IMG/VR virus record: IMGVR_UViG_3300031949_000019
From: a virus
Length of the DNA: 64,000 nucleotides
Strand: one strand, 5' to 3'
The first letter of the stretch is position 1, and each line of letters opens with the position of its first letter. The notes under the pieces are model-generated. The model was given only the letters and a program-made list of their open reading frames with translations. It ran no database searches and was not told where the DNA came from. Below are positions 5,442 to 21,532 of this stretch, piece after piece. The translations under genes were made by a program, and so were the position numbers.

Positions 5442-5470
5442 TTGACAATTATTATCGCTCGCGCTAATCT
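5442..5470 (+). promoter_or_regulatory. sigma70-type promoter, leaderless
   Basis: TTGACA-17 nt-TAATCT, ATG 8 nt downstream. Confidence 0.75.
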
Positions 5471-5478
5471 TTATCGCT

Positions 5479-5667
5479 ATGAACAACGGATACACTATCC
5501 ATCAAGCGGCGGTAATTCTTGGTGTTAGCCCACAGAGAGTACGCCAGCTTGCCCAGAAACTGTCGGCAGTGCGGAGGGTTGGCAATGTAATCGTTTTGTC
5601 AATCGCGCAGATTCAACGAATGGCGAAACGCAACACGAAGCCGGGTCCAAAGAAAGGGAAGGAGTAA
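5479..5667 (+). CDS. small HTH DNA-binding protein
   Basis: YTIHQAAVILGVSPQRVRQLA HTH_17-like motif. Confidence 0.85.
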   Translation: MNNGYTIHQAAVILGVSPQRVRQLAQKLSAVRRVGNVIVLSIAQIQRMAKRNTKPGPKKGKE

Positions 5668-5670
5668 TCA

Positions 5671-6390
5671 ATGCCAACTAAAACAGATTCAGTAGTAGCA
5701 GCGAAGGAGCCAAGGTTTCACGGACGACTTACGACCTTGCATAGACAAGGACAGTGTGATCACGGAGAAGTGCTGACTGCAACTTGTGATGAATGCCAGT
5801 CGGTAAATGAGGAACAGAACCTTGCTGTTCCATCGGGCCAGCTTTCCAAAGACATTTTGGCAAAGATTACGCCGCGTCCGTGGCGTCGTTACAGCGATAA
5901 ACTGCGACCTCAATTCTCAACGCGTGTCCATGAAATACACGATGCAAGAGGATGTACGTTAGTAAGTTGGGGCGGTTTTGACGGCGTGGACTTTTCATAC
6001 GATGAAATCGCTAGTTACATTGATCTGATCGTAGCCGCCGTCAACTCTTACTCCCCTGAGCGAGAAGCAGCGTACCAGGCATCCCAAGCAGAAATAGAAG
6101 CCTTCTGGACAATGCTTGATCGTTGCTGGGAGATCGAGCCGCGCGAATACTTTGAAACCGAAGCGCCTAAGAACGGCTTTGAACATGCAACCGCGATGGC
6201 CGTTCATTATATGTGGAAGCGAGAGACGAAACCTAGCGAGGCGTACCAGGAATTAGTAACAGCAGCGCGTGAAGTGATGACCTGGGGAGTTGAGCACGAC
6301 GATGCACGGCTCGACTACATCACGGTTCAAGTGGACAGAACCGCCATATCGAATTTGCAGGCTGCTATAGATAGACTGGAAGGAAAGTAG
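5671..6390 (+). CDS. hypothetical protein
   Basis: 239-aa ORF with GGAG RBS. Confidence 0.7.
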   Translation: MPTKTDSVVAAKEPRFHGRLTTLHRQGQCDHGEVLTATCDECQSVNEEQNLAVPSGQLSKDILAKITPRPWRRYSDKLRPQFSTRVHEIHDARGCTLVSWGGFDGVDFSYDEIASYIDLIVAAVNSYSPEREAAYQASQAEIEAFWTMLDRCWEIEPREYFETEAPKNGFEHATAMAVHYMWKRETKPSEAYQELVTAAREVMTWGVEHDDARLDYITVQVDRTAISNLQAAIDRLEGK

Positions 6391-6392
6391 TT

Positions 6393-6578
6393 ATGCCAAA
6401 TTGTACGAGTTGCGGATCGTCTATTCCAGAGGGGCAAGGCAAGTCTTGTTCGATGTGTTACGGCGACATCGACTACGGCAAAGACGGTTACTATCGTGCT
6501 GAGATGGAACGCGCAGAACAAGAACAGCGAGACATAGAGCAGGACTACTACGAGCATCAACCGGAGCAAACCAAATGA
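6393..6578 (+). CDS. small zinc-finger-like protein with acidic tail
   Basis: CTSCG...CSMCYG. Confidence 0.65.
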   Translation: MPNCTSCGSSIPEGQGKSCSMCYGDIDYGKDGYYRAEMERAEQEQRDIEQDYYEHQPEQTK

Positions 6579-6949
6579 ATCAGGATGACATTCGTAAATT
6601 GTATGGGCCTTTCTGGAAAGCTAACTCCCAATTCGTAAGTGATGAAGCCGTCGCGCTGATTGCTAAATTATCCGTAGAGTCTATTTCAGGACTTGAAGGC
6701 GCAGACTTCATCGCATTAACGCCAATACTCAGTGATGCTCTCACTGCTGCCAGAGAAGCACAGAGGGAAGCGTTGGCGGGAATTCAATTCGCTAAAGTCA
6801 TTCCGGTTGATCAAGGATGGACGGTAAGCATCGATTCGTTGGGAATCAAACTGTACGGGACTGAGAGCGCGGCACAACAAGTCTGTAGCGCAATCAACGT
6901 CAATGTCGCTGCTGCTATTCGGCAGGGGGTAAAGAACCAAAGTCCGTAA
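6575..6949 (+). CDS. hypothetical protein
   Basis: 124 aa, ATGA coupling. Confidence 0.65.
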   Translation: MNQDDIRKLYGPFWKANSQFVSDEAVALIAKLSVESISGLEGADFIALTPILSDALTAAREAQREALAGIQFAKVIPVDQGWTVSIDSLGIKLYGTESAAQQVCSAINVNVAAAIRQGVKNQSP

Positions 6950-6989
6950 AAGGAACGTGGGGTGATTCGTAATGAAGGGAGAGGGTAAA

Positions 6990-7247
6990 ATGGCTGAATC
7001 TGATAAAGACCGGGCTGACAGACTCGACGCTCAAGATCGCTTGATTGCTCGCGGCTATAAACGAGAGGAATGCCGCGCGTGCAAGGGCATCGGTACGCAC
7101 CCGCCAACTGATAGACCATGCTTGTCTTGTGATGGTCGTGGGTTTCATTGGCAAGCGCCAATAACAAAGTGCATCGTTGAAGAGCCTTTGGCTGTCGTAC
7201 CAACGCCTGAGAGTGATATGGACGATTTTTGGGGATTTGGAGGCTGA
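6990..7247 (+). CDS. small protein with DnaJ-type CxxCxGxG zinc-finger repeats
   Basis: CRACKGIG...CLSCDGRG; start chosen after GAGGG. Confidence 0.65.
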   Translation: MAESDKDRADRLDAQDRLIARGYKREECRACKGIGTHPPTDRPCLSCDGRGFHWQAPITKCIVEEPLAVVPTPESDMDDFWGFGG

Positions 7248-7937
7248 GTGATGATTGAACCAACAGAGAAGACAGTAGCAGGGGAGCAGGATTCTGGAAA
7301 TGAAAACAACCCCTCTCAACTTTCAACTATCGAGTCGGAAAGACATTCAGTTGAGGCTTGGCCGCCGGAGCGCGTATGGCTGCCAGAGGGTACGGCGGAG
7401 CTAGCCGCCGTTTCGCCGGAGTTACAAAACATCGAGGGTGCGTGGTGGGTAAAAGAAGGTGGCACCCGCCATCACCCCGAAGGCCAGCAGGGAGCAAAAC
7501 GCATCTTAGGAATCCCAACTGACGTGAACACCGTTGCATGGGCAGAAGAAGCAATTCAATTGCGAACCGCGTTAGAAGATTTGATGAACGTAATTCGTGT
7601 CGATGAATTGCTACCTGAAAGTGTCAGCTATATGCGGCAGGCCCAAGATGCGATTGATGCTGTACCGCCCGCTCTCCCCTCTCAGAGCGTAGTAGTTGGG
7701 GAACAGTGGCAGGATATTTCAACTGCGCCAAAAACCGGCGAGCACTTCTTAGCAACGGGCGGCAGTTTTGGGATTTGTGGAGGCAAAGAACAGCCGTGGG
7801 TAGACGTAGTTCACTATTGGGACGTTAAAGGCGAGGAAGGTTTCTATCCGAGCAACGGGCCTGACGAGCCGTATCTACACCTGACAGGATGGATGCCTTT
7901 CCCTTCAGTAGCAGAGGAAAAGGAGTTGGAGAAATGA
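7248..7937 (+). CDS. phage protein with C-terminal DUF551-like domain
   Basis: WQDISTAPKTG...VVHYW...LTGWMPFP pattern. Confidence 0.65.
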   Translation: MMIEPTEKTVAGEQDSGNENNPSQLSTIESERHSVEAWPPERVWLPEGTAELAAVSPELQNIEGAWWVKEGGTRHHPEGQQGAKRILGIPTDVNTVAWAEEAIQLRTALEDLMNVIRVDELLPESVSYMRQAQDAIDAVPPALPSQSVVVGEQWQDISTAPKTGEHFLATGGSFGICGGKEQPWVDVVHYWDVKGEEGFYPSNGPDEPYLHLTGWMPFPSVAEEKELEK

Positions 7938-8023
7938 GCAAAATCAATTTTCAATTTGGGTACGGGCATGCGATTTTCGTTGTGATAATCGTAGTCCTTA
8001 TTGCTCTAGCACAGAGATGTTAG
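7934..8023 (+). CDS. 29-aa hydrophobic mini-ORF
   Basis: Hand translation MSKINFQFGYGHAIFVVIIVVLIALAQRC*; ATGA overlap and AGGAG RBS. Confidence 0.4.
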   Translation: MSKINFQFGYGHAIFVVIIVVLIALAQRC

Positions 8024-8056
8024 GCTTTCAAATAAAGCGATTCAGGAGCAATCCAA

Positions 8057-8716
8057 ATGAGCGAAATCAATTCAGCACAAGCACCTTGTCCACATCTTCA
8101 TACAGACTTCTTCAGCAAGTTACTGGACAGGTGTTCGGACTGTGGATCGTTCATTGCTTCCTTTCAGGGTGGTGGAGAGCAGGAACTATTATCGGCATCA
8201 GAAATGATTGACCGTGAACTGGTAGAACTTGCGTTAGAGAGCCACGCACGAGCGTTAATGTACCCGGACAGCAAGATTCAGCACGACCGCGCTAACGAGT
8301 GCCGAAATGAATTGCTGAAACGTCTCACCCGCTATCAACCCAACCAAGCCGCAGCCAAAACACATCCAGAGGATTTCTGCCATCGCTGTGGAGGCCGCAA
8401 CGCTACATGGTTTGCGCCGTCGCCTTTATGGAATTTAGCTGTTCGGGCAAAAGGCGAACCAGAGATTCTTTGTCCCGTTTGTTTCATTCAACTTGCAGAA
8501 GAAGCCGGAATCAACGGAATGGCATGGAAGGTTGCACCCGAATCTTATGAATGGGCCTCCGCAGATATAAAACGGCTGGCAAGAGAAGTGATGGACAAGC
8601 TAAGAGCGCCGGGGTACTTCGACGAAGAATTATTCGACCACCCTGCTTTCAGTGATGAGGATGTTATTTCTATTATTGAATCAGTCCTTACTGGAGAAAA
8701 GAAAGAGGAAGGTTAA
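8057..8716 (+). CDS. hypothetical protein with CxxC motifs
   Basis: 219 aa, AGGAG RBS, CHRCG and CPVC. Confidence 0.7.
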   Translation: MSEINSAQAPCPHLHTDFFSKLLDRCSDCGSFIASFQGGGEQELLSASEMIDRELVELALESHARALMYPDSKIQHDRANECRNELLKRLTRYQPNQAAAKTHPEDFCHRCGGRNATWFAPSPLWNLAVRAKGEPEILCPVCFIQLAEEAGINGMAWKVAPESYEWASADIKRLAREVMDKLRAPGYFDEELFDHPAFSDEDVISIIESVLTGEKKEEG

Positions 8717-9570
8717 TGGAGAACAAAGATCAGAAATCGGTTAATGAAGAAACAGATACTAGTCTCCCAGACGTTGTTATTTCCAAAGACAACTTGGAGA
8801 GTGCTGATTTGCGACTAGCAAGAGAGGATCACGCCTATGCGGTGGGATTTGCTGAAGGGCTAAGGCTCGCTACAGCAGAAGAACAGTCTCGCATTCACCT
8901 GATGGGTGATGGTCTACATTTTGATGATTATTCAGAGGACTATAAAAACAGATTAGCGGCGGTGGAACGACAAAGAGCGGAGGCGTTGCGAGCGATGCGT
9001 CAAGAATCCGAGTCGAGCGAAGCGAGCTACACCCCTGACGATACGCCCGCGAGTTCTGTTCCGCATGATCCCAAATCTTCTGAATCTTCATCTATTCCCC
9101 TGCCTGCGGAGCGACCACAACTTGTCCACACGGCGCGGCAAATGTTTGAGACGCGATTGGCGAAGTACAACGATCCACACAATCTCGAATGGGATTTTGA
9201 TGACGTTACTGATAAGTGGGAGCGCCGCGCTTTCAGCGCGTTCATGGACTTAGTTGCAACCGAGGCGCGGTTAGCTGAAGCTCAACAGCAACTCAACCAA
9301 TTGCAAATCGTAAACAAACAGCTATCAGAAGGTTTAAGTGTTCGAGACGCGCAATATCAGACTCTACGCGCGCAACTCACTGGCTCAGACCGATTCGTGG
9401 CGGGAGTTGAAGCAGCAGCAAAATGTGCCGAATCCTTCATCTCAGTCAAGTACGAAAAGTTTACGGAATTGCGTGGAGAGGATTGGTTAATCGCAAATGT
9501 TGCAAATGGAATCCGTAGCGAACTCCTTCCTGCTGGCTACCAAGCACTACAACAAGAGAAGGAGAACTGA
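8716..9570 (+). CDS. hypothetical coiled-coil protein
   Basis: 284 aa, coupled on both sides. Confidence 0.7.
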   Translation: MENKDQKSVNEETDTSLPDVVISKDNLESADLRLAREDHAYAVGFAEGLRLATAEEQSRIHLMGDGLHFDDYSEDYKNRLAAVERQRAEALRAMRQESESSEASYTPDDTPASSVPHDPKSSESSSIPLPAERPQLVHTARQMFETRLAKYNDPHNLEWDFDDVTDKWERRAFSAFMDLVATEARLAEAQQQLNQLQIVNKQLSEGLSVRDAQYQTLRAQLTGSDRFVAGVEAAAKCAESFISVKYEKFTELRGEDWLIANVANGIRSELLPAGYQALQQEKEN

Positions 9571-10544: not shown

Positions 10545-11168
10545 TTATGCGCCTGACGCTCCGCTTGCGCCGGATTTGCCGCTAGATCCGCTTGCCCCAC
10601 TAAATCCAGATGCTCCAGAAAACCCACTGACGCCTGAGTAACCTGAGATGCCGCTGTAACCCGAATACCCCGAATCGCCCTTCGGAATACTTTGAATCAA
10701 AGCAACCGTCGCGCTTGCTGTCAAATAGAAGGGATATGTTGCCCCAAACTGCGCGGCGCCCTGATTGAAAACATCAAGTTGATCCCATGTTGTTGTTGCT
10801 CCCAAACTCGCTGGGATCATCCATCCTGCATTGGCTTGCGGAAACCCAAAGATTATTACGCTTGCAACATCGTCCACATATAGCTGTCCGGTGAACCGTG
10901 ATGTTTGAACGTCTACTCCATCGTCCGTGGTACGGATAGTAAATTGTGGGATCGTAAGGAAACCATCGACATCAACTGAGCACTGAACGTCGTAAAAAAA
11001 TCCGGTCTGCCCGTTTCCCGGCATGATCGGCGTCACGCCATCGCTGTCCAAGAATCGCTGCGAATAATATCCTCGGATATGAGGATCGCCTTCGCCTATC
11101 CATATAGGCGGTTCCGGCACTGTCTGGAAAATTAGAATCTCAGCCATAAGAACTAAGGCGACCCGCAC
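10545..11168 (-). CDS. virion protein with C-terminal (Gly-X-Ser)n tail
   Basis: Ends GDSGYSGYSGISGYSGVSGFSGASGFSGASGSSGKSGASGASGA*; true start may be MAEIL at 11147. Confidence 0.8.
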   Translation of the reverse strand: MRVALVLMAEILIFQTVPEPPIWIGEGDPHIRGYYSQRFLDSDGVTPIMPGNGQTGFFYDVQCSVDVDGFLTIPQFTIRTTDDGVDVQTSRFTGQLYVDDVASVIIFGFPQANAGWMIPASLGATTTWDQLDVFNQGAAQFGATYPFYLTASATVALIQSIPKGDSGYSGYSGISGYSGVSGFSGASGFSGASGSSGKSGASGASGA

Positions 11169-11219
11169 GGGAGCAGGCCGCCTAATGGTGGAAAGGCGCA
11201 GCCAAGCAGCCCTTCTCAG

Positions 11220-11531
11220 TTACACCTTCGATCCGGTGATGTACCACTGTGATAAGCCGTCCGATTCCGCGTAGCCTACATTCCCGTCTTCAATGACCGT
11301 GGTGGCGTCGGCAGTAGCGAGTGTATCCGGGCTTGTCGGCCCAACTGTAGCGTCGCCTCCTGAGCCAACTATTCGGATGACATTGTTTCCCTGCTCAAGT
11401 GTGCAGAGACGCGCGAGGGGTAAAGTGATAGCTTTCGCCGCCGTAACCTTCACCGCGTCTACTGGCTCAGTCAGCACCAAGTCATCAGCAGTGGTGACTA
11501 TCTGTTGAAAAGGACTCCCAAATAACGGCAT
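11220..11531 (-). CDS. small virion protein, stand-alone copy of a ~100-aa TLPxA domain
   Basis: ITLPLARLC...W; paralogous to N-termini of 11601-12308 and 19380-20693. Confidence 0.7.
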   Translation of the reverse strand: MPLFGSPFQQIVTTADDLVLTEPVDAVKVTAAKAITLPLARLCTLEQGNNVIRIVGSGGDATVGPTSPDTLATADATTVIEDGNVGYAESDGLSQWYITGSKV

Positions 11532-11555
11532 AGCAATTCTCCTTGAAAATAGGCT

Positions 11556-11584
11556 AGAGGGGCGACCGCAAGCATCGCCCTTCT
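11556..11584 (-). terminator. intergenic hairpin, possible weak terminator
   Basis: AGAGGGGCGA / TCGCCCTTCT arms around CCGCAAGCA. Confidence 0.4.
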
Positions 11585-11600
11585 ATCCATTAACTCAGCG

Positions 11601-12308
11601 TTACGCTGCTGCGCCAGATACGCCTGAGAATCCAGAAGCTCCGCTGGCTCCAGATGCGCCTGACTCACCCGAAGCTCCAGAGAAGCCCGAGGTTCCGCTG
11701 AACCCAGAGGCTCCAGAGGCTCCAGACTCGCCTGAAACACCCGAGAACCCAGAGGTTCCGCTGAACCCTGAGATTCCGCTTGCTCCGCTTGCGCCTGACT
11801 CGCCAGATACTCCACTGAATCCTGACGTTCCGCTGAATCCACTGGTTCCGCTGGTTCCGCTGGTGCCAGAGGTTCCACTAGCTCCGCTAGCTCCACTGAA
11901 CCCTGAGATACCAGAGAATCCGCTGACCCCGCTGAATCCAGACGTACCGGAAGTACCAGAGAATCCTGAAACGCCAGCCGCGCCTGTTCCGCCAACGCCA
12001 GTCCATACCCCAGCTCCGTTACTGGTCATTAACGCCGTTTCACCCGGAAGCAATGAGCCAATGCCAATCAACGCGTCCGAGCCTTGAACTAAAATCGTCA
12101 CGGCCTGATCTGCCGTTGAGCTAGCACTGTTGATGATCTCTTTTTGGAATTGACTTTGGCCGATCATTCCCGGTAGGCAGGTTGCGGCTAATGGCAATGT
12201 AGCGTTCTTGCCAGACGTAATCGTGAAAGTCGCTACATCGTCAGACACGGTTAGCGTGTATGAGTCAGTCTTAGTGACCATCTTTGTGTAAGTTGAATAA
12301 AGCGGCAT
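11601..12308 (-). CDS. TLPxA-domain protein with C-terminal (Gly-X-Ser)n repeat
   Basis: About 105-aa globular N-terminus followed by about 40 G-X-S triplets to the stop. Confidence 0.85.
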   Translation of the reverse strand: MPLYSTYTKMVTKTDSYTLTVSDDVATFTITSGKNATLPLAATCLPGMIGQSQFQKEIINSASSTADQAVTILVQGSDALIGIGSLLPGETALMTSNGAGVWTGVGGTGAAGVSGFSGTSGTSGFSGVSGFSGISGFSGASGASGTSGTSGTSGTSGFSGTSGFSGVSGESGASGASGISGFSGTSGFSGVSGESGASGASGFSGTSGFSGASGESGASGASGASGFSGVSGAAA

Positions 12309-12320
12309 AATTTGTTTCTC

Positions 12321-12767
12321 CTAAAGCGACAAAGGTGCGGCGGCTCCGGCTATACCAGCCGCAGTCTTCCACGGGCTTTCGCTTTGCGTGACTGTGCCCT
12401 GACCTGAAGAACTCATTGTTTCGTTAGTACCGCGGGTGAGTCCTGCAAGTGCTAGATTCTTGGATTGATTTAATCGGTTTACGTCGTATGCGCCTTCGCG
12501 GGTTTGCTGTCCCGCCTGTTGCATTAACTCGCGTTGGCCGGAACGACGAATAGCATCCCGGATTTGCGGGGTCACGTAGCCCCCTGTCGGACTAGCTAGA
12601 GATTCATCTAATTGTCTTTCTTTTTCGCCTAAGCGATAACCAATGGAAGGATCAATCTGGGCTTTACCAGCGCGAGCGGCAATAATATCGGGTGTGTCTG
12701 GAACGGTCTGCGAGGAAGTCCCTGTTGAGGACTGCGTGGATTTCTGTTTTGTGTCGGACATTCCCAA
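12321..12767 (-). CDS. putative ejection / DNA transfer protein
   Basis: S/T/Q-rich N-terminus, helical middle, C-terminal SPWKTAAGIAGAAAP; follows a GNAT-like gene as in podovirus internal-protein modules. Confidence 0.55.
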   Translation of the reverse strand: MGMSDTKQKSTQSSTGTSSQTVPDTPDIIAARAGKAQIDPSIGYRLGEKERQLDESLASPTGGYVTPQIRDAIRRSGQRELMQQAGQQTREGAYDVNRLNQSKNLALAGLTRGTNETMSSSGQGTVTQSESPWKTAAGIAGAAAPLSL

Positions 12768-12863
12768 GTAGGGCGTTACCTTTGGGTTGCATATTTCACG
12801 AAATTCCGCTCGTCAGACACGGAGTTTAGTATCATATTGTCCTGAGTGCAAGGGAAATCTGCG

Positions 12864-13331
12864 TCAGGATGACCCGCTACTGGGTTGGCGTGTTATTTGG
12901 TAACGAATGAATGGCTTTTGCTGGAATTCCTTTTCTTCGCCGGGTGAGAATCCCAACGCTTCCAAGTATCCCTTTAGTGCGATGTTTCTTTTTGTCACCC
13001 ATGCACACAGTTCCTGCGCTCCGTTTTCAAAGAAGGCATCGCGTATCAGTTTGCCGCCTTCAATCAATATCTCACGCGATGTGCCCCGTTTTGATGTGAA
13101 GTGGGCCTCAAAATGCTGCTCTTTCCACTCGTACAAAAGGAACGCCGCACAGAACTGACCATTAAATACTCCAACTACAATTTGGTGGGGATCGTCAGCA
13201 ATAAAAGCTTCAAAGGACGCGCGGTCGGGCTGTACATGTTTCTTTGCCGCTCGCCACTTGTACGCCTCTTGGAAAAGATCGAGGTCAGCGGTCGGATCAA
13301 GCAGTTGTAATTCTAACTTAGACAAGGGCAA
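12864..13331 (-). CDS. GNAT-fold protein (T7 gp13-like)
   Basis: EAHF...AWVTKRNIALKGYLEALGF..GEE resembles GNAT motifs A/B. Confidence 0.65.
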   Translation of the reverse strand: MPLSKLELQLLDPTADLDLFQEAYKWRAAKKHVQPDRASFEAFIADDPHQIVVGVFNGQFCAAFLLYEWKEQHFEAHFTSKRGTSREILIEGGKLIRDAFFENGAQELCAWVTKRNIALKGYLEALGFSPGEEKEFQQKPFIRYQITRQPSSGSS

Positions 13332-13812
13332 GCCTTCGCGTTAGCGGTAAGGGAGCGAGTTTGTAGACGTGCGGCACTATGTTCTCGGCGTACACAAAAG
13401 CCGTTGCGTCATAGTTGATTTCTTCCCACGTCTGGTACTGGTGCTGCCTTAGATAGTCTCTCCCGCGAATCAAATTGATATTTTCAGGATAGCCCCAAAC
13501 TGTAGGGTCACTCGGCCCCCACAGAACGATGCCGGGTTTCAATTTCTCGCAATGGCAGAAGTGGGCGAAGAAATTATCCACTGCGATCCACGTCGAACAG
13601 CCGTTCACCAAAGCTCGCAGGTCTACATAGGACAAGTTCAGGTAACAGTCCATTACACCTTCGATGCGATCCTCGCCGGCGACTCCAATCTGAATTACTT
13701 CGTAGCCATCGCGCTTCAGCAATGAGACAAGTTTTGGGAAGTAGGGATAATTCTTCGGGTTCTGATTTCCTGACCGGAGCTTTGAGCTGTAAGGGGAGAT
13801 AATGATGGTCAT
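13318..13812 (-). CDS. glycosyltransferase family 9-like, C-terminal Rossmann domain only
   Basis: IIISPYS...KNYP...VIQIG...LRALVNGCSTWIAVDNFFAH...GIVLWGPSDP..WGYP; start ATG 13812 overlaps upstream stop (ATGA). Confidence 0.8.
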   Translation of the reverse strand: MTIIISPYSSKLRSGNQNPKNYPYFPKLVSLLKRDGYEVIQIGVAGEDRIEGVMDCYLNLSYVDLRALVNGCSTWIAVDNFFAHFCHCEKLKPGIVLWGPSDPTVWGYPENINLIRGRDYLRQHQYQTWEEINYDATAFVYAENIVPHVYKLAPLPLTRRLALV

Positions 13813-15512
13813 TTCCAGAACGCCAACATGGCTTCCGTCATCGGCCGCTTCCAATTATTCCGCGCCATCCAAGCGTACAAATTTGAGTCAGAAAATCTTG
13901 CCCCAAGTCTTTGTTGGGCTTCAGCAATCGAGATGATCGGAATATCCTGATCGTCAAAGATTCCTTCATGGCTAACAGCGAGAACTAGACCACGTTCTTT
14001 ATGAATCTCTTTGAGTTGCGGCAAGATACTGAGGGCTGCAAAATGGTCGCCAATTCCTGCGTCCAAAACAACGAGCTTCGGTGAGTTATCTTCAACCCCA
14101 CACGATGCCAGCCATTCTCTAAATTTGGCGTCGTCTTGCGCCCACAAACTGCCATCGTTGAACGTTCTTACTCCACCCGTGCTTTGCTGGAGATGCCAAA
14201 CCGTAATCGTAGGATCAACAATCAACTTGTATCCGGCGCGCTTCAGTTTCATACTGAACCAACTGTCTTCGCGGAAACTAACATTGGTGAGCTTTGGATA
14301 GCCGCCAACTTCGCGGCCAGCCTTTACTCTGAAAAGATAGCAACTGTAAAGATGTTCCACGTCTCGTAGTCGATCACCATCAACAAACCACTGCAAGTTT
14401 GTTCCGTTGAAAATGTCTTCAACTTTCCCCTCAACGCCTTTTGGTAACGGAGCGATATGTCCCGGTTGCAGAACGAGCGGAGCAACCGCGCCTACCGTTT
14501 CATCCTCCATTACCTTCAACAGTTTCTCGATAATGTCAGGCTCAAGGATATGATCGTCATCGACACGGAGTAAAAAGTCGGTCGTACAATTCTCAAGGGC
14601 ATGTTGATGGTTTGCGGCAAGACCTAATCTCGGAGTCTTGAATGTCTCGAACGGAATTCCCGCGTCTTGGAGTAGGTGAAATAGTTCCGTATAAGGTGAG
14701 ACTCCTCGCAGTTCGTTTTGCTCACCATCGTCATAGAGAACTAGCTTGTCAGGCTTGCGAGTTTGAGTTGCAACCGAGGCGATGGCCATTGGAAGCGTGG
14801 TGAAGTAGCGATTGAGAGTTGAAATTTCAACCGTAACCGTTCGCGACTTTGTGACACGCTTCGCTGGTTCGTACTGGAATCGGACGCCCCGCTCCGTGAA
14901 TTCAGTTGCATTAGACGCAATCTCATTCATGGCCGCGAGGTTTTCACTCACATATTCCCTGTATTTACTTTCTATGGCTGACTGCACGGTGCCTGCTTGC
15001 TTGATTCCCGCAAAGTACAAATCAGCATGATCATTTCGGTAGCCGAGATAAGACTTGGAAAACAGTGTCGCGGGTAAGGCTGAGGCAAAATCTTCGGTTG
15101 AAATGTTCCGATAGTAATCAGAGGTAGACGGACTGGCCCATCCCCCATCTGTGCGGATTGTGCCGTGCTCTGCGCGCGTTGGGCCAGCACAGGTGATAAG
15201 CAATAGCCCCCCGGGCTTCAGTAGAGCGTGCATCTGCTTCAGCGACTCGTCCCATCGGCTATCGTGCTCCAATGCCTCGGTACTGATAACCACGTCCCAA
15301 AGGCCGTCTCCCCGAACTTGTGTGACGTGCTTTACCGCGTCAACGCCCGGGCCTTCGCCTAAGTCGATTCCGTGGTACGTGCAATCAGCGAAGTACTGGC
15401 GCACACTTCCGTTAATATCCAGCGAGCCGACTTCAAGAACCTTCTTGCCTGAAAAGAATTCAGGATATTCTCGCTTTACGCTGATAACGAATTGGTTTGC
15501 TTCTCGATGCAA
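13809..15512 (-). CDS. three-domain fusion: class I SAM methyltransferase + GT2 glycosyltransferase + GT9 N-terminal domain
   Basis: KVLEVGSLDING...DVVISTEALEHD (MTase); TVEISTLNR...LYDDG...FLLRVDDD (GT-A DxD); LDAGIGDHFAALSILPQLK (GT9 GIGD motif). Confidence 0.88.
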   Translation of the reverse strand: MHREANQFVISVKREYPEFFSGKKVLEVGSLDINGSVRQYFADCTYHGIDLGEGPGVDAVKHVTQVRGDGLWDVVISTEALEHDSRWDESLKQMHALLKPGGLLLITCAGPTRAEHGTIRTDGGWASPSTSDYYRNISTEDFASALPATLFSKSYLGYRNDHADLYFAGIKQAGTVQSAIESKYREYVSENLAAMNEIASNATEFTERGVRFQYEPAKRVTKSRTVTVEISTLNRYFTTLPMAIASVATQTRKPDKLVLYDDGEQNELRGVSPYTELFHLLQDAGIPFETFKTPRLGLAANHQHALENCTTDFLLRVDDDHILEPDIIEKLLKVMEDETVGAVAPLVLQPGHIAPLPKGVEGKVEDIFNGTNLQWFVDGDRLRDVEHLYSCYLFRVKAGREVGGYPKLTNVSFREDSWFSMKLKRAGYKLIVDPTITVWHLQQSTGGVRTFNDGSLWAQDDAKFREWLASCGVEDNSPKLVVLDAGIGDHFAALSILPQLKEIHKERGLVLAVSHEGIFDDQDIPIISIAEAQQRLGARFSDSNLYAWMARNNWKRPMTEAMLAFWK

Positions 15513-16822
15513 AAGAACCCTCCGAATCCTTCTACTGACTCAGTGATATTTGGTTTGTCTAATGCTTCCCAGATGCCTGTTTTGTCTGGTACGCGACTAA
15601 CCAGTAATTCGTTCACAGCTTGAACGACACCAGGATAGTCGGAACTGTAGTCGTGACCGCATAGTAATCCGCCTTCCACAAGCACTTGTTGCCAATTGAG
15701 AATATCTGCCCTGATCGCGTCGTAGTGATGATCGCCGTCTATGAAGATCATCGAAACGCCAATACCCTTTAGGAATTCCGCCGCATTCGCACTGCTTGTT
15801 CTTAGTGGGACAACCCTGCCTTCCAGTATGTGATCGGAAAGATTTCCGCAGAACTGAAGGTAAGCCGCATCCCCGTCACGTTCTTTTGCGGACTCAAACG
15901 CCGGATCGCCATTTGCTGCCCATGCGTCTACCGCAAACAACCTGCCACCTTCGGGAAGATTATCCGCGAGTGCTCGCGTGCTGCGTCCGTACCACGAACC
16001 AATTTCACAGATTATAGGGTGAAGTCTTGCTTGCGTTGCCAGCCAAATCAATTCATCGTGGCCCATCCAACCTTCAATTTGTTCTGCTCGCGCAATATTC
16101 ACGGGGCCATACCTCGCTCTTAGTTTTGCTTTATTTCGTTCAACTACTTCTACATGGTTCGGGAGTTGAGATAACGTGGTTTCCGCGTCATGCATCACCG
16201 GAAAGTTGCCAACCCATCGGTGACGCTTCCACTCTGGTAGATGTTCGCTGTCTGGAACTTCAACTAACTTGCATTCTTCACCAACTGGAACTTGTACCCA
16301 CTTCCATCCCGCTCGTTCAGCTCTGATAGTGAGGTCGATATCTTCCCCGTAGAACGGCGAGAGGTCTTCGTCCAATACCCCGACTTTATCCAGCATTGTT
16401 CGCCGGAGCATTGCGCAGAAAAAGATAATAAATTCATGTTGAGTATCGTTATCCCACAGTTTATGTGAGCCTGTGATTCCTACTTGTGGATCGGAGAATG
16501 GCCCAGAGAGTAAGTCGAGCCAATGGTTCTTTGGTTGGTCTAAAAGAACGCAGTCGTCGTTAAGTAGGCAAATTAAGTCGCAATGGCTCTCCTTGATTCC
16601 GGCGTTTACTGCTTTTGAAAATCCGATGGGCTTCTCAAACCAGAGCGTTATTCCATCCAGCCCTAAGTCCTGAAGGACGTTGCGAGTCTCAGGAGGTGCA
16701 CCGTTGGCCACAATGACTATTTCGCACTGCTCAAGGTCGGTATGCTGTTTGAGTGATTCGAGACAGGTGCGGAGGCCAGAGGAATTCAAAAACGAGGGGA
16801 TTACGATCGAGAAGCGCGGCAT
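15476..16822 (-). CDS. GT2 glycosyltransferase fused to class I SAM methyltransferase (Methyltransf_24-like)
   Basis: FSIVIPS...VIVANG...GFSKAVNAGI...LLNDD...YGEDIDL; C-terminal EIGSWYGRST...IFIDGDHHY...GGLLCGHDY. Confidence 0.9.
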   Translation of the reverse strand: MPRFSIVIPSFLNSSGLRTCLESLKQHTDLEQCEIVIVANGAPPETRNVLQDLGLDGITLWFEKPIGFSKAVNAGIKESHCDLICLLNDDCVLLDQPKNHWLDLLSGPFSDPQVGITGSHKLWDNDTQHEFIIFFCAMLRRTMLDKVGVLDEDLSPFYGEDIDLTIRAERAGWKWVQVPVGEECKLVEVPDSEHLPEWKRHRWVGNFPVMHDAETTLSQLPNHVEVVERNKAKLRARYGPVNIARAEQIEGWMGHDELIWLATQARLHPIICEIGSWYGRSTRALADNLPEGGRLFAVDAWAANGDPAFESAKERDGDAAYLQFCGNLSDHILEGRVVPLRTSSANAAEFLKGIGVSMIFIDGDHHYDAIRADILNWQQVLVEGGLLCGHDYSSDYPGVVQAVNELLVSRVPDKTGIWEALDKPNITESVEGFGGFFCIEKQTNSLSA

Positions 16823-17015
16823 CCTGCGTACTTTATCATTGGAATAACGTGGAAGTCACGCGGAATGTCGTGCTTCTAACTTGTTGGCAAACTGAATCCA
16901 TAAGTATTTGTTCAAGTAGGTGTTCACGATTGGCCCACGCTCTGTTGCTTGATCCAGCACACGGCTGGTACATAATTGGGGCTTCCACAACCCTTATCTA
17001 CTAATTGAAGTTCAC

Positions 17016-17156
17016 CTAGAGAGGCTTGTGTAACTTTCCATCCTGTATCTTCTGCGCGACAGCAAAGATCGCAATCTTGATGATTGATTCACAACAGGGA
17101 ATAAGACAGTCTATCAAATGACGGTAGGTGGGAATTACAATACTGAATTTAGACAT
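17016..17156 (-). pseudogene. truncated GT2 N-terminus fused to unrelated tail (46 aa)
   Basis: Hand translation MSKFSIVIPTYRHLIDCLIPCCESIIK-IAIFAVAQKIQDGKLHKPL*; first 27 aa parallel the downstream GT2 start MPRFSIVIPSF...LRTCLESLK. Confidence 0.75.
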
Positions 17157-17162
17157 GACTCT

Positions 17163-19022
17163 CTAACGCATCCGAATGTTAGTAAAACCGTGGCTCAGGC
17201 CACGGGCAGCAGTGGTGCGCGTTTCAACCTCAAAATAATAATCCCCTATCGATCCTGTTGGTAAGTTGGTTGTATGAGTTGCCACCAATGAAAAGCTAAC
17301 CCCAACATCGGTAGAAATATAAAACTTGATGGAGGATGTACTTTCTACGACTATCACAAGAATATAAGCTGTGCTAAGTGAAACCGTAATACCTGTATCG
17401 GTAATAGTTCCACCTCCTGAGTTATCGTTAGTAAATGCCTGCCAAGTGGTGTCGCTCGCAACGGTACTGAAACGAAATCCCATCCCATCTAATGTTGGAT
17501 CATCTGAACCTGCCGGATTGCTGCTAAAACTGCCAACCCATATTCGCGTTGATGTAATGTCAGTAAAGGTCATCAACTTAGTAAATATCTGAGGTAGCCA
17601 GTCCACCCAGATAAACGCACCATTGTTAAAATTAAATCCCGCCGTGTTACCAACTGAGGCTCCCGTATTGCGCCGAAGCCAAGGCCCACTTGCGTTATCT
17701 ATATTGGCAGAAACATCAAAAAAAGCAGTGATAGCGCAACCATAAGCGTCAGTGGCGGTACTGTTAGGCCGAGCGTTGACACCCATTAGACGATAGGTTT
17801 CAAACTGCCCACCAATGAACGTACTGCTTGCACCTGTACCGCTAAAACCACTAAAGCCGGATGTTCCTATACCTGAGAATCCAGAGTACCCACTGATTCC
17901 GGAATCACCAGAGAAGCCAGAGACGCCGCTGTACCCGCTTTCACCAGAAGCCCCGCTAGCCCCGGATGCGCCACTCGATCCCGGCCCTCCGGCCTCTGCG
18001 GAAAAACCAGAAGTGCCGGAGAACCCTGATACGCCGCTAAATCCTGAAATACCCGAGTAGCCTGACTCTCCCGATGCTCCGCTGAATCCGCTGGTGCCTG
18101 TTCCAGAAGCACCACTCGCCCCGGAGAAGCCTGACTCTCCACTAAAACCTGAAGCTCCTGAAACCCCAGACTCGCCGGAGAATCCAGAAACGCCAGAGGT
18201 TCCTGAAGTTCCCACTGCTCCGCTAGTTCCAGAAAACCCACTGACGCCGGACGCTCCACTCGCCCCACTTGCCCCTGAAGCGGCTATAGCTCCCGCTGCG
18301 CCTGAAACACCTGAGTATCCACTCTGGCCCGAAGCCCCAGATGCGCCAGAAAACCCACTCTTACCCGGCTTGTTTCCTGAGAATCCAGAGAATCCACTTT
18401 TACCAGAAGTCCCTGAATAGCCACTGAAGCCTGATTTACCAGATGCCCCGCTCGCTCCGCTTGCGCCTGATGCGCCCGACGTTCCCGAGAATCCGCTTGT
18501 ACCCGAGAAACCGGAAGTTCCTGAAAATCCGCTAACCCCAGAAAACCCGGATATTCCACTCGCGCCTGACGCCCCACTTTCACCGGGGGTAGCCCCGGAA
18601 ACACCTGAAGCCCCTGATGCGCCTGACGATCCAACATTGTCGCCGGAGAAACCACTAACACCTGAGAAGCCTGAAGTTCCTGTGGCCCCACTAACCCCGG
18701 AGGTGCCAACTCCTGACGTACCAGACGCCCCAGAGGCGCCTGATTCTCCCGACGTGCCTGAGAAGCCGGACACCCCGCTAAATCCGCTTGTGCCGGGGTT
18801 GTCGCCACTGAAGCCTGAGACTCCAGAGTATCCTGAAACGCCACTCTCACCGGAGAAGCCAACACCGCTTGCACCACTAAATCCAGATGCGCCAGAGTAG
18901 CCGGACGTACCAGGATTGTCGCCGCTAAATCCTGAAACACCTGACGCACCACTTGCGCCGTCGCTGCCCGGAATGCCGACTTCAACTATCCGAATATTGG
19001 TGTCGTCAGAAATTATCGTCAA
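17163..19022 (-). CDS. long (Gly-X-Ser)n collagen-like fibre protein with C-terminal globular (possibly lectin-like) domain
   Basis: About 120 G-X-S triplets with short interruptions, then about 220-aa beta-rich domain. Confidence 0.85.
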   Translation of the reverse strand: MTIISDDTNIRIVEVGIPGSDGASGASGVSGFSGDNPGTSGYSGASGFSGASGVGFSGESGVSGYSGVSGFSGDNPGTSGFSGVSGFSGTSGESGASGASGTSGVGTSGVSGATGTSGFSGVSGFSGDNVGSSGASGASGVSGATPGESGASGASGISGFSGVSGFSGTSGFSGTSGFSGTSGASGASGASGASGKSGFSGYSGTSGKSGFSGFSGNKPGKSGFSGASGASGQSGYSGVSGAAGAIAASGASGASGASGVSGFSGTSGAVGTSGTSGVSGFSGESGVSGASGFSGESGFSGASGASGTGTSGFSGASGESGYSGISGFSGVSGFSGTSGFSAEAGGPGSSGASGASGASGESGYSGVSGFSGDSGISGYSGFSGIGTSGFSGFSGTGASSTFIGGQFETYRLMGVNARPNSTATDAYGCAITAFFDVSANIDNASGPWLRRNTGASVGNTAGFNFNNGAFIWVDWLPQIFTKLMTFTDITSTRIWVGSFSSNPAGSDDPTLDGMGFRFSTVASDTTWQAFTNDNSGGGTITDTGITVSLSTAYILVIVVESTSSIKFYISTDVGVSFSLVATHTTNLPTGSIGDYYFEVETRTTAARGLSHGFTNIRMR

Positions 19023-19025
19023 ATT

Positions 19026-19361
19026 TCAACAGTCCTTTGCGAACATCAATCCTGAGATAATGCAGGGGATCGTAAAGCCACTCGTATCAACTACGCTGAC
19101 GTGGTAATGTCCCGCGTCCCACGTCAATGCCGTAGTGGCAGCTTCATCCAGATTAAACCGCCAAACACCGGGGCTTGCCTCGACGAACAAGTTGTTGCCT
19201 GTGTTCCAAGTAAACGCTGAAGCACCGTTAGGCTCACCAATAAATTCGGCTGAGAGCACGGGGATGACAACACCGTCAGCATCGGTGAACGTAATTGTGG
19301 GTTGATAAATCCCGCCTCGGGTAATTACCACGGTGAAACTAGCAATGAATACATCGGCCAT
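19026..19361 (-). CDS. putative fibre-anchoring / BppU-like beta-sandwich protein
   Basis: ITRGG...TITFTDADG...WRFNL..A.T..L.W..G.Y pattern; precedes fibre gene. Confidence 0.5.
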   Translation of the reverse strand: MADVFIASFTVVITRGGIYQPTITFTDADGVVIPVLSAEFIGEPNGASAFTWNTGNNLFVEASPGVWRFNLDEAATTALTWDAGHYHVSVVDTSGFTIPCIISGLMFAKDC

Positions 19362-19379
19362 ATTTAAGGTTCTCTTAAG

Positions 19380-20693
19380 CTATTGTGCTTCCCAGACGAA
19401 GTTCTGCGCGGCGGCAGTCCCGGTCTCCGTCCATACTATATCGAATGTTGTAGCCCCCACGTTCTGAATTATTCCCGACACCGTGTTTCCGCTTGAAGTT
19501 GCAAGGAACACCGCAAAGGTCGATGATGTTTGGCTTGCCTGTGCTGCCGTTCCCGCCGAGGTCATATACACACATCTGTTTCCACTTGAATTCCAGATGC
19601 CCATAGAAAACGGAGTCGGAGTAGCAGAGTTGCTATTTACAAACGCCCCAATACCGTAGATGCGAACAATTACGGGTGTCTTGCCCAAACCATGGGTGAT
19701 TGTCTGCGTGCCCGTGGCCGTGGGTGATGCTTCTACGCCAGCAGTCGATAAGGGAGTACCAGAGAGTCCACTCGTTCCACTGAAGCCTGATGTACCACTT
19801 GCGCCCGCTGCCCCGGAAGTGCCTGATGTTCCGGCACCCGTCGCACCTGAAACTCCCGATGTCCCCTGACTACCTGTTTCACCACTGAATCCGCTAATCC
19901 CTGAAAATCCACTTATTCCCGATGCGCCCGTTGCGCCAGATGTCCCGCTCGTTCCTGCTCCTGTCGCTCCCGACACTCCCGAAGCACCCGCAACACCACT
20001 GTCCCCAGAGAACCCTGATTCTCCACTAAAACCTGAAACCCCACTTGTTCCTGAGAATCCAGACGTGCCAGAATCGCCAGAAGCACCACTCGCTCCGTCA
20101 ATTCCTGTGGCCCCTGAAATACCGCTCATCCCCGAATAGCCACTTTGTCCGCTAGTTCCCGACGCTCCATCGGCACCGGCGCCCCCAGCCTCACCTGAAA
20201 TACCTGATTCCCCGCTGAAACCAGATGTTCCACTCGTACCCGCTCCTGTAGCCCCACTTGTTCCAGAAGTACCCGATGTACCTTGCGTACCCATCGCCCC
20301 TGACGTGCCGCTTGCGCCGATAGCACCTGAAACCCCAGACTCGCCTTGAGTTCCAGTCGCTCCGCTAACACCCGAAAATCCTGACTCCCCACCCACACCA
20401 GTACTGAGTGTGGTAATTATCGCCGTCCATGTATTAACCTCGTCACTTGACAGAGCCATGGTTTGGTTAGGCTGTAGTGTTGGTGTGCCAACAAAAATAT
20501 CTCCACCCTGAATTTCAAGGGTTAACACATCAAGAGATTGCGCACTATTGACAACGGTTTTTTGGGCTTGAGCACCTATGCAGGCTGAGGCCGCAGGCAA
20601 CGTGCCAGTCGCAGCAATCGAAAGAACGAAGCCTATGTAATCGTTATCTGGCACGATTGTATAGTCAGCAGTTTCGATTACGCGAGATGCCAT
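19380..20693 (-). CDS. TLPxA domain + (Gly-X-Ser)n repeat + C-terminal tail-fibre tip domain
   Basis: N-terminal TLPAASAC domain, about 70 triplets, C-terminal TQTITHGLGKTP typical of fibre tips. Confidence 0.85.
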   Translation of the reverse strand: MASRVIETADYTIVPDNDYIGFVLSIAATGTLPAASACIGAQAQKTVVNSAQSLDVLTLEIQGGDIFVGTPTLQPNQTMALSSDEVNTWTAIITTLSTGVGGESGFSGVSGATGTQGESGVSGAIGASGTSGAMGTQGTSGTSGTSGATGAGTSGTSGFSGESGISGEAGGAGADGASGTSGQSGYSGMSGISGATGIDGASGASGDSGTSGFSGTSGVSGFSGESGFSGDSGVAGASGVSGATGAGTSGTSGATGASGISGFSGISGFSGETGSQGTSGVSGATGAGTSGTSGAAGASGTSGFSGTSGLSGTPLSTAGVEASPTATGTQTITHGLGKTPVIVRIYGIGAFVNSNSATPTPFSMGIWNSSGNRCVYMTSAGTAAQASQTSSTFAVFLATSSGNTVSGIIQNVGATTFDIVWTETGTAAAQNFVWEAQ

Positions 20694-20695
20694 CT

Positions 20696-21532
20696 TTAAC
20701 CTTTCGGGAAAATGTCAACAATCATTGCGTAAACAACAATGTGATTGTCAACAATCTGATTTTGGTCGATACTGATGGCTTGAATAGAAGTCCAATCAAA
20801 TCCAGCGACATTTACCGCTGCAATCGCAAGATCAAGACTTCCGCCAGCCATCGCAATAATGTTTGCGTGAGTTGAGTCAATATAATGCAGCCATGCCTCA
20901 GTAATTTGCAGACTTGCTGCGCCAGAGTCTGTAGTTGCTGCTACCGTGACCCCGTTTACTATAGTTGTGCCGGTGATAGGCGATCCAGTATCACCCTTCC
21001 AGTAGGATCGCACCCTAAGACGATCATCAACTTGTGTTAAAGTATTAGCGGGCAGATTCGCGGAAACTACAACTTGGGCTGTGTTGTCTACGCCCGCCGT
21101 GCCTGTGCCGCTAATGTAGGTAGCCGATGAGCTAAGGTGAACACCGATAGGAAGAACTCCAGAGAACCCACTGGCCCCGCTGAAACCACTTGTCCCGGAA
21201 TCCCCACTTGCTCCTGAATACCCTGAAACACCGCTTGTTCCAGAAAAACCAGATATACCTGAAAATCCGCTAGCCCCAGAAAAACCTGATGCACCCGAAA
21301 ATCCAGATACACCAGAAAATCCAGATGTGCCCTCTGCACCAACTGCCCCGCTAACGCCTGAAAATCCAGACTGCCCAGAAAATCCGCTTGTGCCGGAGGT
21401 TCCGCTTGCGCCTGAAGCACCCGGATTAGCACCAGAGAAACCAGATTTACCAGAGGCTCCTGAAGTTCCAGAAGTACCTACCCCAGATGCGCCACTCAGA
21501 CCGATATTGATTTCTATTATGCGAATCGGCAT
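20696..21532 (-). CDS. (Gly-X-Ser)n repeat protein with C-terminal globular domain
   Basis: About 37 triplets after MPIRIIEINIG. Confidence 0.82.
   Translation of the reverse strand: MPIRIIEINIGLSGASGVGTSGTSGASGKSGFSGANPGASGASGTSGTSGFSGQSGFSGVSGAVGAEGTSGFSGVSGFSGASGFSGASGFSGISGFSGTSGVSGYSGASGDSGTSGFSGASGFSGVLPIGVHLSSSATYISGTGTAGVDNTAQVVVSANLPANTLTQVDDRLRVRSYWKGDTGSPITGTTIVNGVTVAATTDSGAASLQITEAWLHYIDSTHANIIAMAGGSLDLAIAAVNVAGFDWTSIQAISIDQNQIVDNHIVVYAMIVDIFPKG

Follow-up and report, generated by a model that had tools for sequence, protein, structure and literature searches.

The systems described so far that are closest in function to the locus examined here are the SgtA-BclA3 pair, the autotransporter heptosyltransferases and the glycosylation of serine-rich repeat adhesins. 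SgtA of Clostridioides difficile is a GT-A enzyme encoded next to bclA3, and it O-glycosylates threonine residues in collagen-like repeats within the cytoplasm (PMC7157674). TibC and Aah are GT9-related, soluble enzymes encoded beside their substrate, a repetitive surface protein whose serines they hyperglycosylate in the cytoplasm; TibC, which heptosylates repeat proteins, has an iron finger, an N-terminal beta-barrel and a dodecameric assembly (PMC4358343). The serine-rich repeat adhesins of Gram-positive bacteria are modified by a cluster of several glycosyltransferases encoded beside the serine-rich repeat gene, with stepwise cytoplasmic glycosylation and possible O-acetylation (PMC5207161, PMC5578698). 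With regard to the collagen fold itself, PMC11923368 states that Gly-Pro-Thr peptides are triple-helical only when galactosylated (citing Bann 2000) and that the cuticle collagen of Riftia uses glycosylated threonine (citing Mann 1996). Here we analyze a 64,000-nucleotide stretch of viral DNA (IMG/VR record IMGVR_UViG_3300031949_000019, hereafter the window), which is part of a 79.4-kb phage contig from a soil metagenome and in which a block of putative glycosyltransferase and methyltransferase genes, referred to below as the cassette, lies between genes for collagen-like proteins built of Gly-X-Ser (G-X-S) repeats, which we call fibre genes. We propose, with a probability of roughly 0.55, that the cassette is a dedicated system that acts late and in the cytoplasm to glycosylate the G-X-S fibres of the phage itself.

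Comparative genomics gives good support to a functional link between enzymes and fibres, whereas its chemistry and any stabilizing role are what we infer. An initial annotation had placed two GT2 domains, a split GT9 enzyme and two S-adenosylmethionine (SAM) methyltransferase domains at 13318-16822 between the G-X-S genes, and the same domains were recovered at these coordinates. The first enzyme gene encodes a GT2 domain (GT2a) fused to a Methyltransf_24 domain (MT24), the second a Methyltransf_23 domain followed by another GT2 domain (GT2b) and a GT9-like N-terminal half (GT9N), and the third the GT9-like C-terminal half (GT9C). That annotation had also proposed a survey of the co-occurrence of G-X-S genes with GT2, GT9 and methyltransferase genes across phage databases, and this survey gave a strongly positive result, whether started from the enzymes or from the fibres and in phages of differing backbones.

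For the enzyme side, a scan of IMG/VR with the 567-amino-acid (aa) product of the second enzyme gene as a single query gave no match, so that an alignment was needed, and an alignment of 21 GT2a-MT24 homologues retrieved 80 IMG/VR loci (identified below by L numbers). Separate tblastn searches with the individual domains located GT2a, GT2b, GT9N and GT9C together in about 25 of these 80 loci. Proline-free genes with serine at the Y position were present in 14 of the 15 cassette loci with at least 3 kb examined upstream, mostly directly upstream of the first enzyme gene and in some cases also downstream, whereas none was found in the 58 loci that were matched by the methyltransferase only or lacked GT2b/GT9 (Fisher p = 4e-14, calculated on loci that are related and not independent). 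Three of these 58 control loci contained G-X-T or proline-rich collagen-like genes. As a separate observation, long Gly-X-Thr genes occur in L062 (3765-7637) and L075 (11688-13631), with 168 and 72 threonine residues at Y, respectively, near a stand-alone Methyltransf_24 gene and with no GT2b/GT9 cassette.

Searching from the fibre side with the 235-aa G-X-S protein retrieved 78 loci, 36 of which carried cassette genes in the flanks examined, often within 40 nucleotides (nt) of the fibre gene. As the GT9C family is rare (329 representative clusters at E<=1e-30 among 1.84 billion proteins) and yet present in about half of the G-X-S loci, this corresponds to an enormous enrichment. Five long contigs that seemed to lack a cassette were searched in full; two contained a complete cassette more than 10 kb away and two contained other GT2 genes, while the fifth, a fragment of 37% completeness, contained none. 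Six evenly sampled GT9C representatives gave three with an adjacent G-X-S gene (L168, L169, L173), two on contigs that were too short and one without such a gene (L172). The 56 loci that combine GT2b and GT9C form 21 clusters at 60% GT9C identity, 14 of which include a G-X-S gene within 1.5 kb, and a G-X-S open reading frame (ORF) lies no more than 40 nt from the cassette in 26 of the 56 loci, the cassette often being flanked on both sides. A scan of cellular genome contigs returned five weak loci only, from which we conclude that the cassette is rare in cellular genomes.

Comparison of these loci revealed a constant core consisting of GT2b fused to GT9N, GT9C as a usually separate small protein, and at least one SAM methyltransferase, with GT2a often present in addition. 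The methyltransferase family varies, being of the MT23/11/12 type in most loci, FkbM/RfbT-like in L102 and MT24 in the clade of the window, and because these families replace one another it can be argued that methylation itself is selected. In the phages of 100-150 kb a GT17 domain is added to the cassette. The surrounding genomes differ widely: homologues of the tail and other structural proteins of the window were found in L001-L004 and L012 only, and the backbones include podo-like phages, phages with an SU10-type or an HK97-type capsid and several contigs of 100-150 kb. In L095, an SU10-type capsid gene lies just before the cassette and a 412-triplet G-X-S gene immediately after it, while in L173 genes for an HK97-type capsid, an S78 protease and a portal protein are located near the cassette. 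Parts of the fibres also recur between lineages, as the 113-aa C-terminal domain of the 437-aa fibre protein likewise ends G-X-S proteins that precede the cassette elsewhere, with 54-61% identity in L003, L008/9/11 and L112; the structural model of this conserved domain reached a predicted local distance difference test (pLDDT) value of 54.8 only.

Among 50,697 GenBank phage records, the sole match was the Methylophilaceae phage P19250A (KX815270, L166), whose genes 23-26 encode, in this order, a G-X-S protein, a SAM methyltransferase, GT2b fused to GT9N, and GT9C. Gene 23 (3797-7402) specifies a protein of 1201 aa with 281 triplets, 225 of them with serine at Y, and the GT9C protein is 44% identical to that of the window. 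In contrast to the window, P19250A, a siphovirus with a 38.7-kb genome whose host is a freshwater Betaproteobacterium, has neither GT2a nor MT24. Its cassette genes are annotated as "tail length tape-measure protein" and "hypothetical"; judging from the repeat sequence, the tape-measure annotation of gene 23 is probably wrong. We found no mention of glycosylation in the accessible literature on P19250A, and no paper on Gly-X-Ser phage collagens or on a GT2b/GT9 cassette.

Three further loci showed features of their own. A giant ORF of more than 3000 aa in L015 (568-9711) lies directly upstream of the cassette and contains 553 triplets, with serine at Y in 461 and cysteine in 58. In L003, a relative with 65% identity, a GIY-YIG/NUMOD3 homing endonuclease gene (12927-13901) is inserted exactly between the genes of GT9N and GT9C. 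L168 encodes a nucleoside diphosphate (NDP)-sugar epimerase/dehydratase beside the cassette (1061-2005; GDP-mannose 4,6-dehydratase-like, E 7e-49), which suggests that some phages also tailor the donor sugar.

The positions of all features in the array of the window are listed in Table 1. The array comprises 13 co-directional ORFs on the minus strand, running from 21532 down to 10545 with small gaps and overlaps.

Table 1. Features of the fibre and enzyme array of the window, in the direction of transcription.
Feature	Position	Strand	Observations
G-X-S fibre gene, 278 aa	20696..21532	-	Pfam Collagen 53.1 bits; 36 triplets, 32 with Ser at Y; non-repeat C-terminal domain
G-X-S fibre gene, 437 aa	19380..20693	-	Pfam Collagen 96.9 bits; 70 triplets
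Small conserved protein, 111 aa	19026..19361	-	between two fibre genes; homologues at the same position in L001, L003, L004
Largest G-X-S fibre gene, 619 aa	17163..19022	-	Pfam Collagen 143.4 bits; 118 triplets, 102 with Ser at Y
Terminator-like hairpin	17188-17205	-	7-bp stem with 6 GC pairs, then TTTT; in the last 40 nt of the 619-aa gene
Stub ORF, 46 codons	17019..17156	-	begins 6 nt past the stop codon of the 619-aa gene
GT2a + Methyltransf_24 fusion, 448 aa	15476..16822	-	GT2 51.4 bits; Methyltransf_24 66.9 bits
Methyltransf_23 + GT2b + GT9-like N-half, 567 aa	13809..15512	-	Methyltransf_23 34.3 bits; GT2 50.4 bits; tail of ~100 aa
GT9-like C-half, 164 aa (from ATG at 13812)	13318..13812	-	ATGA overlap with the upstream 567-aa gene
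Possible GNAT-like acetyltransferase, 155 aa	12864..13331	-	phrog_1249 acetyltransferase E 7.9e-6; weak
Ser/Thr/Gln-rich protein, 148 aa	12321..12767	-	beside the cassette in close relatives only; no family match
G-X-S fibre gene, 235 aa	11601..12308	-	Pfam Collagen 68.2 bits; 43 triplets, 40 with Ser at Y; directly downstream of the enzyme block
103-aa protein	11220..11531	-	like the fibre N-terminal domain, no repeat; BLASTP against the 235-aa protein E 1e-4
G-X-S gene, 207 aa	10545..11168	-	Pfam Collagen 29.4 bits; N-terminal 160 aa non-repeat, then 14 C-terminal G-X-S triplets

Both GT2 domains of the window score above the PF00535 cut-off of 23.3 bits and contain a conserved DxD-type motif, N88-D89-D90 in GT2a and D104-D105-D106 in GT2b, the former being invariant in 21 homologues together with the SAM motif E273/G275/G279 of the fused methyltransferase and the latter across 24 homologues. 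A GT-A fold was obtained when a homologue of GT2b was modelled (Z 18.6 against solved GT-A enzymes), so that score, motif and modelled fold all agree with membership in GT2. The closest solved methyltransferase to MT24 is 6g7d (E 2.4e-8), probably a mycobacterial sugar 1-O-methyltransferase. Searches against NCBIfam gave generic GT2 matches far below threshold only (best MftF, 60.7 bits against a cut-off of 280), and PADLOC returned no match for any cassette protein. No transmembrane segment was predicted in any of the cassette enzymes. With the DxD motifs, the G-x-G-D, lysine and aspartate of the GT9-like halves and the SAM motif all invariant, the enzymes look active and soluble by sequence, and the combination of invariant catalytic motifs with the lack of a membrane segment indicates that they act on a cytoplasmic substrate.

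The GT9-like enzyme required a closer assignment, as the Pfam GT9 model (PF01075) did not match the pieces of the window even at E<=10. A profile of 20 GT9C homologues, compared against the PDB, matched the C-terminal domain of Escherichia coli WaaC (E 3e-5), WaaF (E 3e-3) and 3tov (E 0.025), and the invariant residues K20, D79 and H84 aligned to the K-H-W-P and V-D-T-G-L-S-H motifs of WaaC. An invariant G-x-G-D (G26/G28/D29), as is found at the start of GT9 enzymes, is present in the tail of the 567-aa protein. The two halves were predicted to bind each other with a complex score of 0.84, against 0.34 for the best control, the mark applied to this score being reached by 51 of 78 solved complexes and by 2 of 108 mismatched pairs; thus, according to the model, they form a real enzyme in two pieces. 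In L014, GT2b and both GT9 halves share one ORF, for which Pfam GT9 scored 18 bits against a cut-off of 22; a fold search with the L014 GT2b-GT9 model was dominated by the GT-A domain, and the GT9N stretch was modelled poorly (pLDDT 35-68). Of the best 150 representatives of the GT9C family, 121 stand alone as proteins of about 150-170 aa and the other 29 are fused to GT2 or methyltransferase domains; no fusion to G-X-S repeats was found. Profile likeness with the donor-site lysine and aspartate and the N-terminal G-D are thus present, while the two Rossmann-like domains do not lie in one polypeptide, and on these features the label that we accept is that of a split, divergent GT9-like enzyme and not of a regular GT9 member.

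All five G-X-S proteins of the window exceed the Pfam Collagen (PF01391) gathering score of 27.2 bits. When only runs of at least five Gly-X-Y triplets are considered, the five genes contain 282 triplets in total, with a longest run of 43, and serine occupies Y in 235 of them, which bears out the earlier description of more than 200 evenly spaced serines. These serines are encoded by all six codons (AGY 80, TCN 155), which shows that the serines are conserved as amino acids and do not result from homogenization of a DNA repeat. The X position is taken by Ala (78), Phe (56), Thr (46) and Val (33), followed by Glu, Ile and Tyr. Proline occurs three times at Y and never at X (3 of 564 X and Y positions), and charged residues make up about 6%. 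The stabilizers of characterized bacterial and phage collagens, namely proline at X, Thr/Gln or many charged pairs, for which PMC8968730 and PMC11923368 give typical bacterial values, are accordingly not a feature of the G-X-S proteins. A composition this hydrophobic at X is odd for the solvent-exposed surface of a collagen, and a hydrating or shielding coat is a plausible answer to it; the same composition may also leave room for a fold other than the triple helix, for example a polyglycine-II bundle.

Among the fibre proteins, the 437-aa and 235-aa products share an N-terminal domain of about 95 aa, and the start of the 278-aa gene abuts the stop of the upstream structural gene. The C-terminal domain of about 180 aa in the 619-aa protein led, in an Atlas feature search, to viral clusters of ConA-like and SO2946-like_C type at 0.96-0.97; it may be lectin-like, which we mention as a lead only. 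Homologues of the non-repeat N-terminal domain of the 207-aa protein occur in L001, L002 and L089.

On this basis, a possible course of events can be outlined for glycosylation of the phage's own fibres. Fibre chains and enzymes would be made from the same late transcript, and one transferase would place the first sugar, derived from a host-made nucleotide sugar, on the hydroxyl groups of Y-position serines. The split GT9-like enzyme may be this initiating transferase, a guess that stands on analogy with the autotransporter heptosyltransferases and is not a finding. The GT2 enzymes would then extend the glycan, the methyltransferases would O-methylate its sugars, and the 155-aa protein could possibly add acetyl groups. 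The resulting coat would hydrate and shield a fibre surface that is otherwise very hydrophobic, X being largely Phe, Tyr, Ile, Val and Ala. The initial annotation had seen no genes for sugar-nucleotide synthesis, and none of the corresponding families was detected among the scanned window ORFs of at least 150 aa, with about 15 kb of the contig lying outside the window. We also considered a stricter version, according to which chains of Gly-(aromatic/aliphatic)-Ser are stable and soluble as a triple helix only after dense O-glycosylation of Y-position serine, initiated by the split GT9-like enzyme, which would then be a new class of protein serine O-glycosyltransferase acting as a heterodimer with a GT2. 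This requirement for the glycan appears unlikely to us.

Several results weigh against glycosylation of the fibres or against parts of it. The acceptor, the serine O-linkage and the sugar are themselves what we infer. The sequence and fold neighbours of the GT2 domains, all about equally close, are chondroitin synthase, SpsA, TarP/TarS, hyaluronan synthase, polypeptide GalNAc-transferases, the collagen galactosyltransferase ColGalT1 and GalT1 of the serine-rich repeat system, and since polysaccharide synthases and protein O-glycosyltransferases are found at similar Z, these neighbours do not tell the acceptor. Signatures of initiating protein O-glycosyltransferases were not found, with no tetratricopeptide repeat (TPR) in the Pfam results and no TibC match at E<=10. 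Within the array, the first enzyme gene is set off from the 619-aa gene by a gap of 340 nt and by the terminator-like hairpin, which might reduce expression of the enzymes compared with that of the fibre. None of the RNA runs searched for the sequence contains it, the only data set in which it occurs being a soil metagenome. In the comparative data, 42 of the 78 G-X-S loci had no cassette in the flanks examined, many of them ending in or just after the fibre gene, and two loci have a cassette without a G-X-S gene in the sequence examined, L172 (14 kb) and L084 (13.6 kb). The records are mostly fragmentary, and loci that are related do not count as independent observations. L172 in addition encodes a 664-aa protein (7125-9119) with repeats rich in Ser, Thr and Gln (S-S-Q-Q-P-V-T units), which could be an alternative acceptor. 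Finally, the composition of the G-X-S proteins is equal whether or not a cassette lies nearby (X about 70% Tyr/Ile/Phe, Y 86-90% Ser, Pro below 1%), and no difference in proline, charge or aromatic content was found between the two groups of loci, hence there is no sign that unglycosylated fibres compensate for a missing glycan.

Seen against these results, the initial idea of a methyl-capped glycan on the fibre serines holds for the link between enzymes and fibres, which co-occurrence supports, and not for the O-linkage to Y-position serine or the methyl cap, for which nothing that we computed speaks. Its further suggestion that the glycan stabilizes the fibres gained no support from the comparison of composition with and without cassette, and the 42 of 78 loci without a cassette argue against strict dependence.

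The most serious rival explanation assumes that the cassette modifies a glycan of the host envelope, such as the lipopolysaccharide (LPS) core, the O-antigen or the capsule, in order to exclude superinfection or to prevent progeny from re-adsorbing to lysed cells, its proximity to the fibres reflecting a clustering of receptor-related genes. The seroconversion genes of P22 and Sf6, which adjoin tailspike genes, offer a precedent for such an arrangement, and the phage of the window is temperate, with an integrase gene at 1959-3212. The GT9-like half, which is closest to the LPS heptosyltransferases WaaC and WaaF, counts against glycosylation of the fibres and in favour of an envelope target, as do the matches of the GT2 domains to polysaccharide synthases and the 340-nt gap before the enzyme block. 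However, the enzymes are soluble, and GtrA/GtrC, Wzx/Wzy and other membrane partners were not found in the scanned ORFs; the block is embedded in a co-directional late structural array with fibre genes on both sides and shows no promoter-like excess over shuffled sequence. Moreover, the linkage is specific to G-X-S proteins and does not extend to tail fibres generally (0 of 58 control loci), and the acceptor-side N-terminal half of the GT9-like enzyme is shortened to about 100 aa and is unlike WaaC. Taken together, we consider modification of the host envelope distinctly unlikely. Hypermodification of the phage DNA by sugar and methyl groups as a defence against restriction is a reading of almost negligible probability: phage glycosyltransferases are known to hypermodify DNA (bioRxiv 10.1101/2023.12.21.572611), the phrog_2675 "DNA methyltransferase" family matches MT24, phrog_842 gave a weak match (E 0.0025), and the Pfam family TAGT matches a relative (E 9e-4), yet neither a hydroxymethylase nor TET or other base-modifying genes were found in the scanned ORFs, MT24 is closest to small-molecule or sugar O-methyltransferases, and a DNA target for a block in the structural module would leave the linkage to G-X-S genes unexplained.

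The target might also be another virion protein, such as a capsid, tail tube or decoration protein, with the G-X-S fibres being mere neighbours. This would resemble the phages Che8 and Rita, whose capsid proteins are glycosylated (PMC11256854; the account in PMC12619734 citing Freeman 2023), and the cassette does follow the major capsid gene directly in L095, stands beside prohead protease and capsid genes in L173, and lacks a nearby G-X-S gene in L172 and L084. On the other hand, the cassette of L095 is followed at once by the 412-triplet G-X-S gene, and the G-X-S gene is the one recurring partner across backbones whose capsids and tails are unrelated, so that we rate a different virion target as improbable. 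A comparably low probability is given to the view that the association carries no enzyme-substrate meaning, be it that enzymes and fibres travel as one recombining host-range module or that the enzymes make a free or lipid-linked methylated oligosaccharide for another use. Signs of module exchange do exist in the GT2 stub at 17019-17156, in the many variants of fusion and gene order and in the GIY-YIG gene between the GT9 halves of L003. Hitch-hiking alone is nevertheless insufficient to explain a linkage that persists down to 30-45% enzyme identity, spans unrelated backbones and brings the genes into abutment in 26 of 56 loci, and the lack of transport or lipid-carrier genes also speaks against this view. 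Glycosylation of the phage's own G-X-S fibres is therefore the explanation that we prefer.

Regarding the remaining genes of the array, the stub ORF downstream of the 619-aa fibre gene deserves mention, as its first 11 residues match the N-terminus of GT2a (7 of 11 identical, E 0.001 in a single comparison); from this likeness, the stub is probably what is left of an older GT2 gene that began directly behind the fibre gene before the present one, 190 nt further along, took its place. The 155-aa protein accompanies the cassette in L001-L004, L012 and L088/89, all of them close relatives; Pfam gave Acetyltransf_8 at E 0.046 only, NCBIfam gave no match, and a profile of six sequences had no match in the PDB. 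Elsewhere in the window, a long structural array on the minus strand contains genes for the large terminase, for a candidate major head protein and for a 2334-aa internal virion protein that carries a transglycosylase domain. A 416-aa protein encoded between terminase and head (45319-46569, minus strand) has a short Gly-Ala-Ser tract of about 6-8 triplets near its C-terminus, which could be a further virion protein with serine repeats, judging from this tract. No tRNA genes were found in the window, promoter-like sites were no more common than in shuffled sequence, promoter and terminator scans both remaining at chance level, and a comparison of the enzyme block and 20 kb of structural genes with GenBank phages at the DNA level revealed no similar phage.

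If glycosylation of the fibres is confirmed, glycosylation of virions would be a common modular trait of environmental phages, carried by a single recognizable cassette that comprises hundreds of sequence clusters, and glycan-coated fibres would change current views of adsorption, protease resistance and immune recognition. The fibres would also represent a type of collagen that lacks every known stabilizer, which bears on the folding of the triple helix and on the design of collagen-like materials. Should the stricter version hold as well, a glycan-dependent, proline-free collagen would be widespread in environmental phages. As the cultured pair of phage P19250A and strain IMCC19250 carries a minimal cassette, the proposal is directly testable.

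How far the locus follows described systems depends on which feature is compared. The seroconversion system gtrABC combines a membrane-bound GT2 enzyme of GtrB type with the flippase GtrA and GtrC, whereas the cassette enzymes have no membrane segments and no such families occur in the scanned ORFs; a weak match to phrog_841 (E 2.6e-4) was noted in this comparison. With the cluster F phages Che8 and Rita, which had served as the initial parallel, the concept is shared, since phage-encoded glycosyltransferases decorate the particle of the phage itself (PMC11256854; PMC12619734 citing Freeman et al. 2023). The parallel does not extend to homology: tblastn of GT2a-MT24 against the 50,697 phage records showed no similarity of the glycosyltransferase domain to GenBank mycobacteriophages at E<=1e-5, and in Che8 and Rita it is capsid and tail tube proteins that are modified, at their C-termini, by enzymes whose genes are located at the right genome end, away from structural genes. 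A link to Che8-type clusters was considered and dropped, as the matches at mycobacteriophage genome ends came from the methyltransferase domain only and the gene of phage Patt has no glycosyltransferase neighbour. WaaC and WaaF are the best solved relatives of GT9C and share with the split enzyme the donor-motif lysine and aspartate and the G-D motif of the N-terminal half, from which the enzyme of the window differs by scoring below the Pfam GT9 threshold, by an N-terminal (acceptor) half of about 100 instead of about 170 aa, and by being split and phage-borne, so that lipid A-Kdo is unlikely as its acceptor. Relative to TibC and Aah, the GT9C profile gave no TibC match at E<=10, and the enzyme of the window is split, with its N-terminal half fused to a GT2 domain. 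The serine-rich repeat system includes the GT2 domain of GalT1 (5hea), which is among the fold neighbours of GT2b with Z 17.4, and is set apart by initiation through the GT4 enzymes GtfA/B, which are absent here, and by dipeptide Ser-X repeats instead of collagen-like triplets. The SgtA-BclA3 pair has in common with the window that a GT-A gene adjoins a collagen-like gene, and in the SgtA system it is the hydroxy amino acid at Y that is targeted. Methylated sugars are known from a collagen-like spore protein, being carried by the glycans of BclA of Bacillus anthracis. In contrast, SgtA-BclA3 belongs to the surface of a bacterial spore, with Gly-Pro-Thr repeats and a TPR on SgtA, while the system described here is borne by a phage, shows no TPR in the Pfam results, and combines proline-free Gly-X-Ser repeats with aromatic or aliphatic X, three transferase domains and accompanying methyltransferases.

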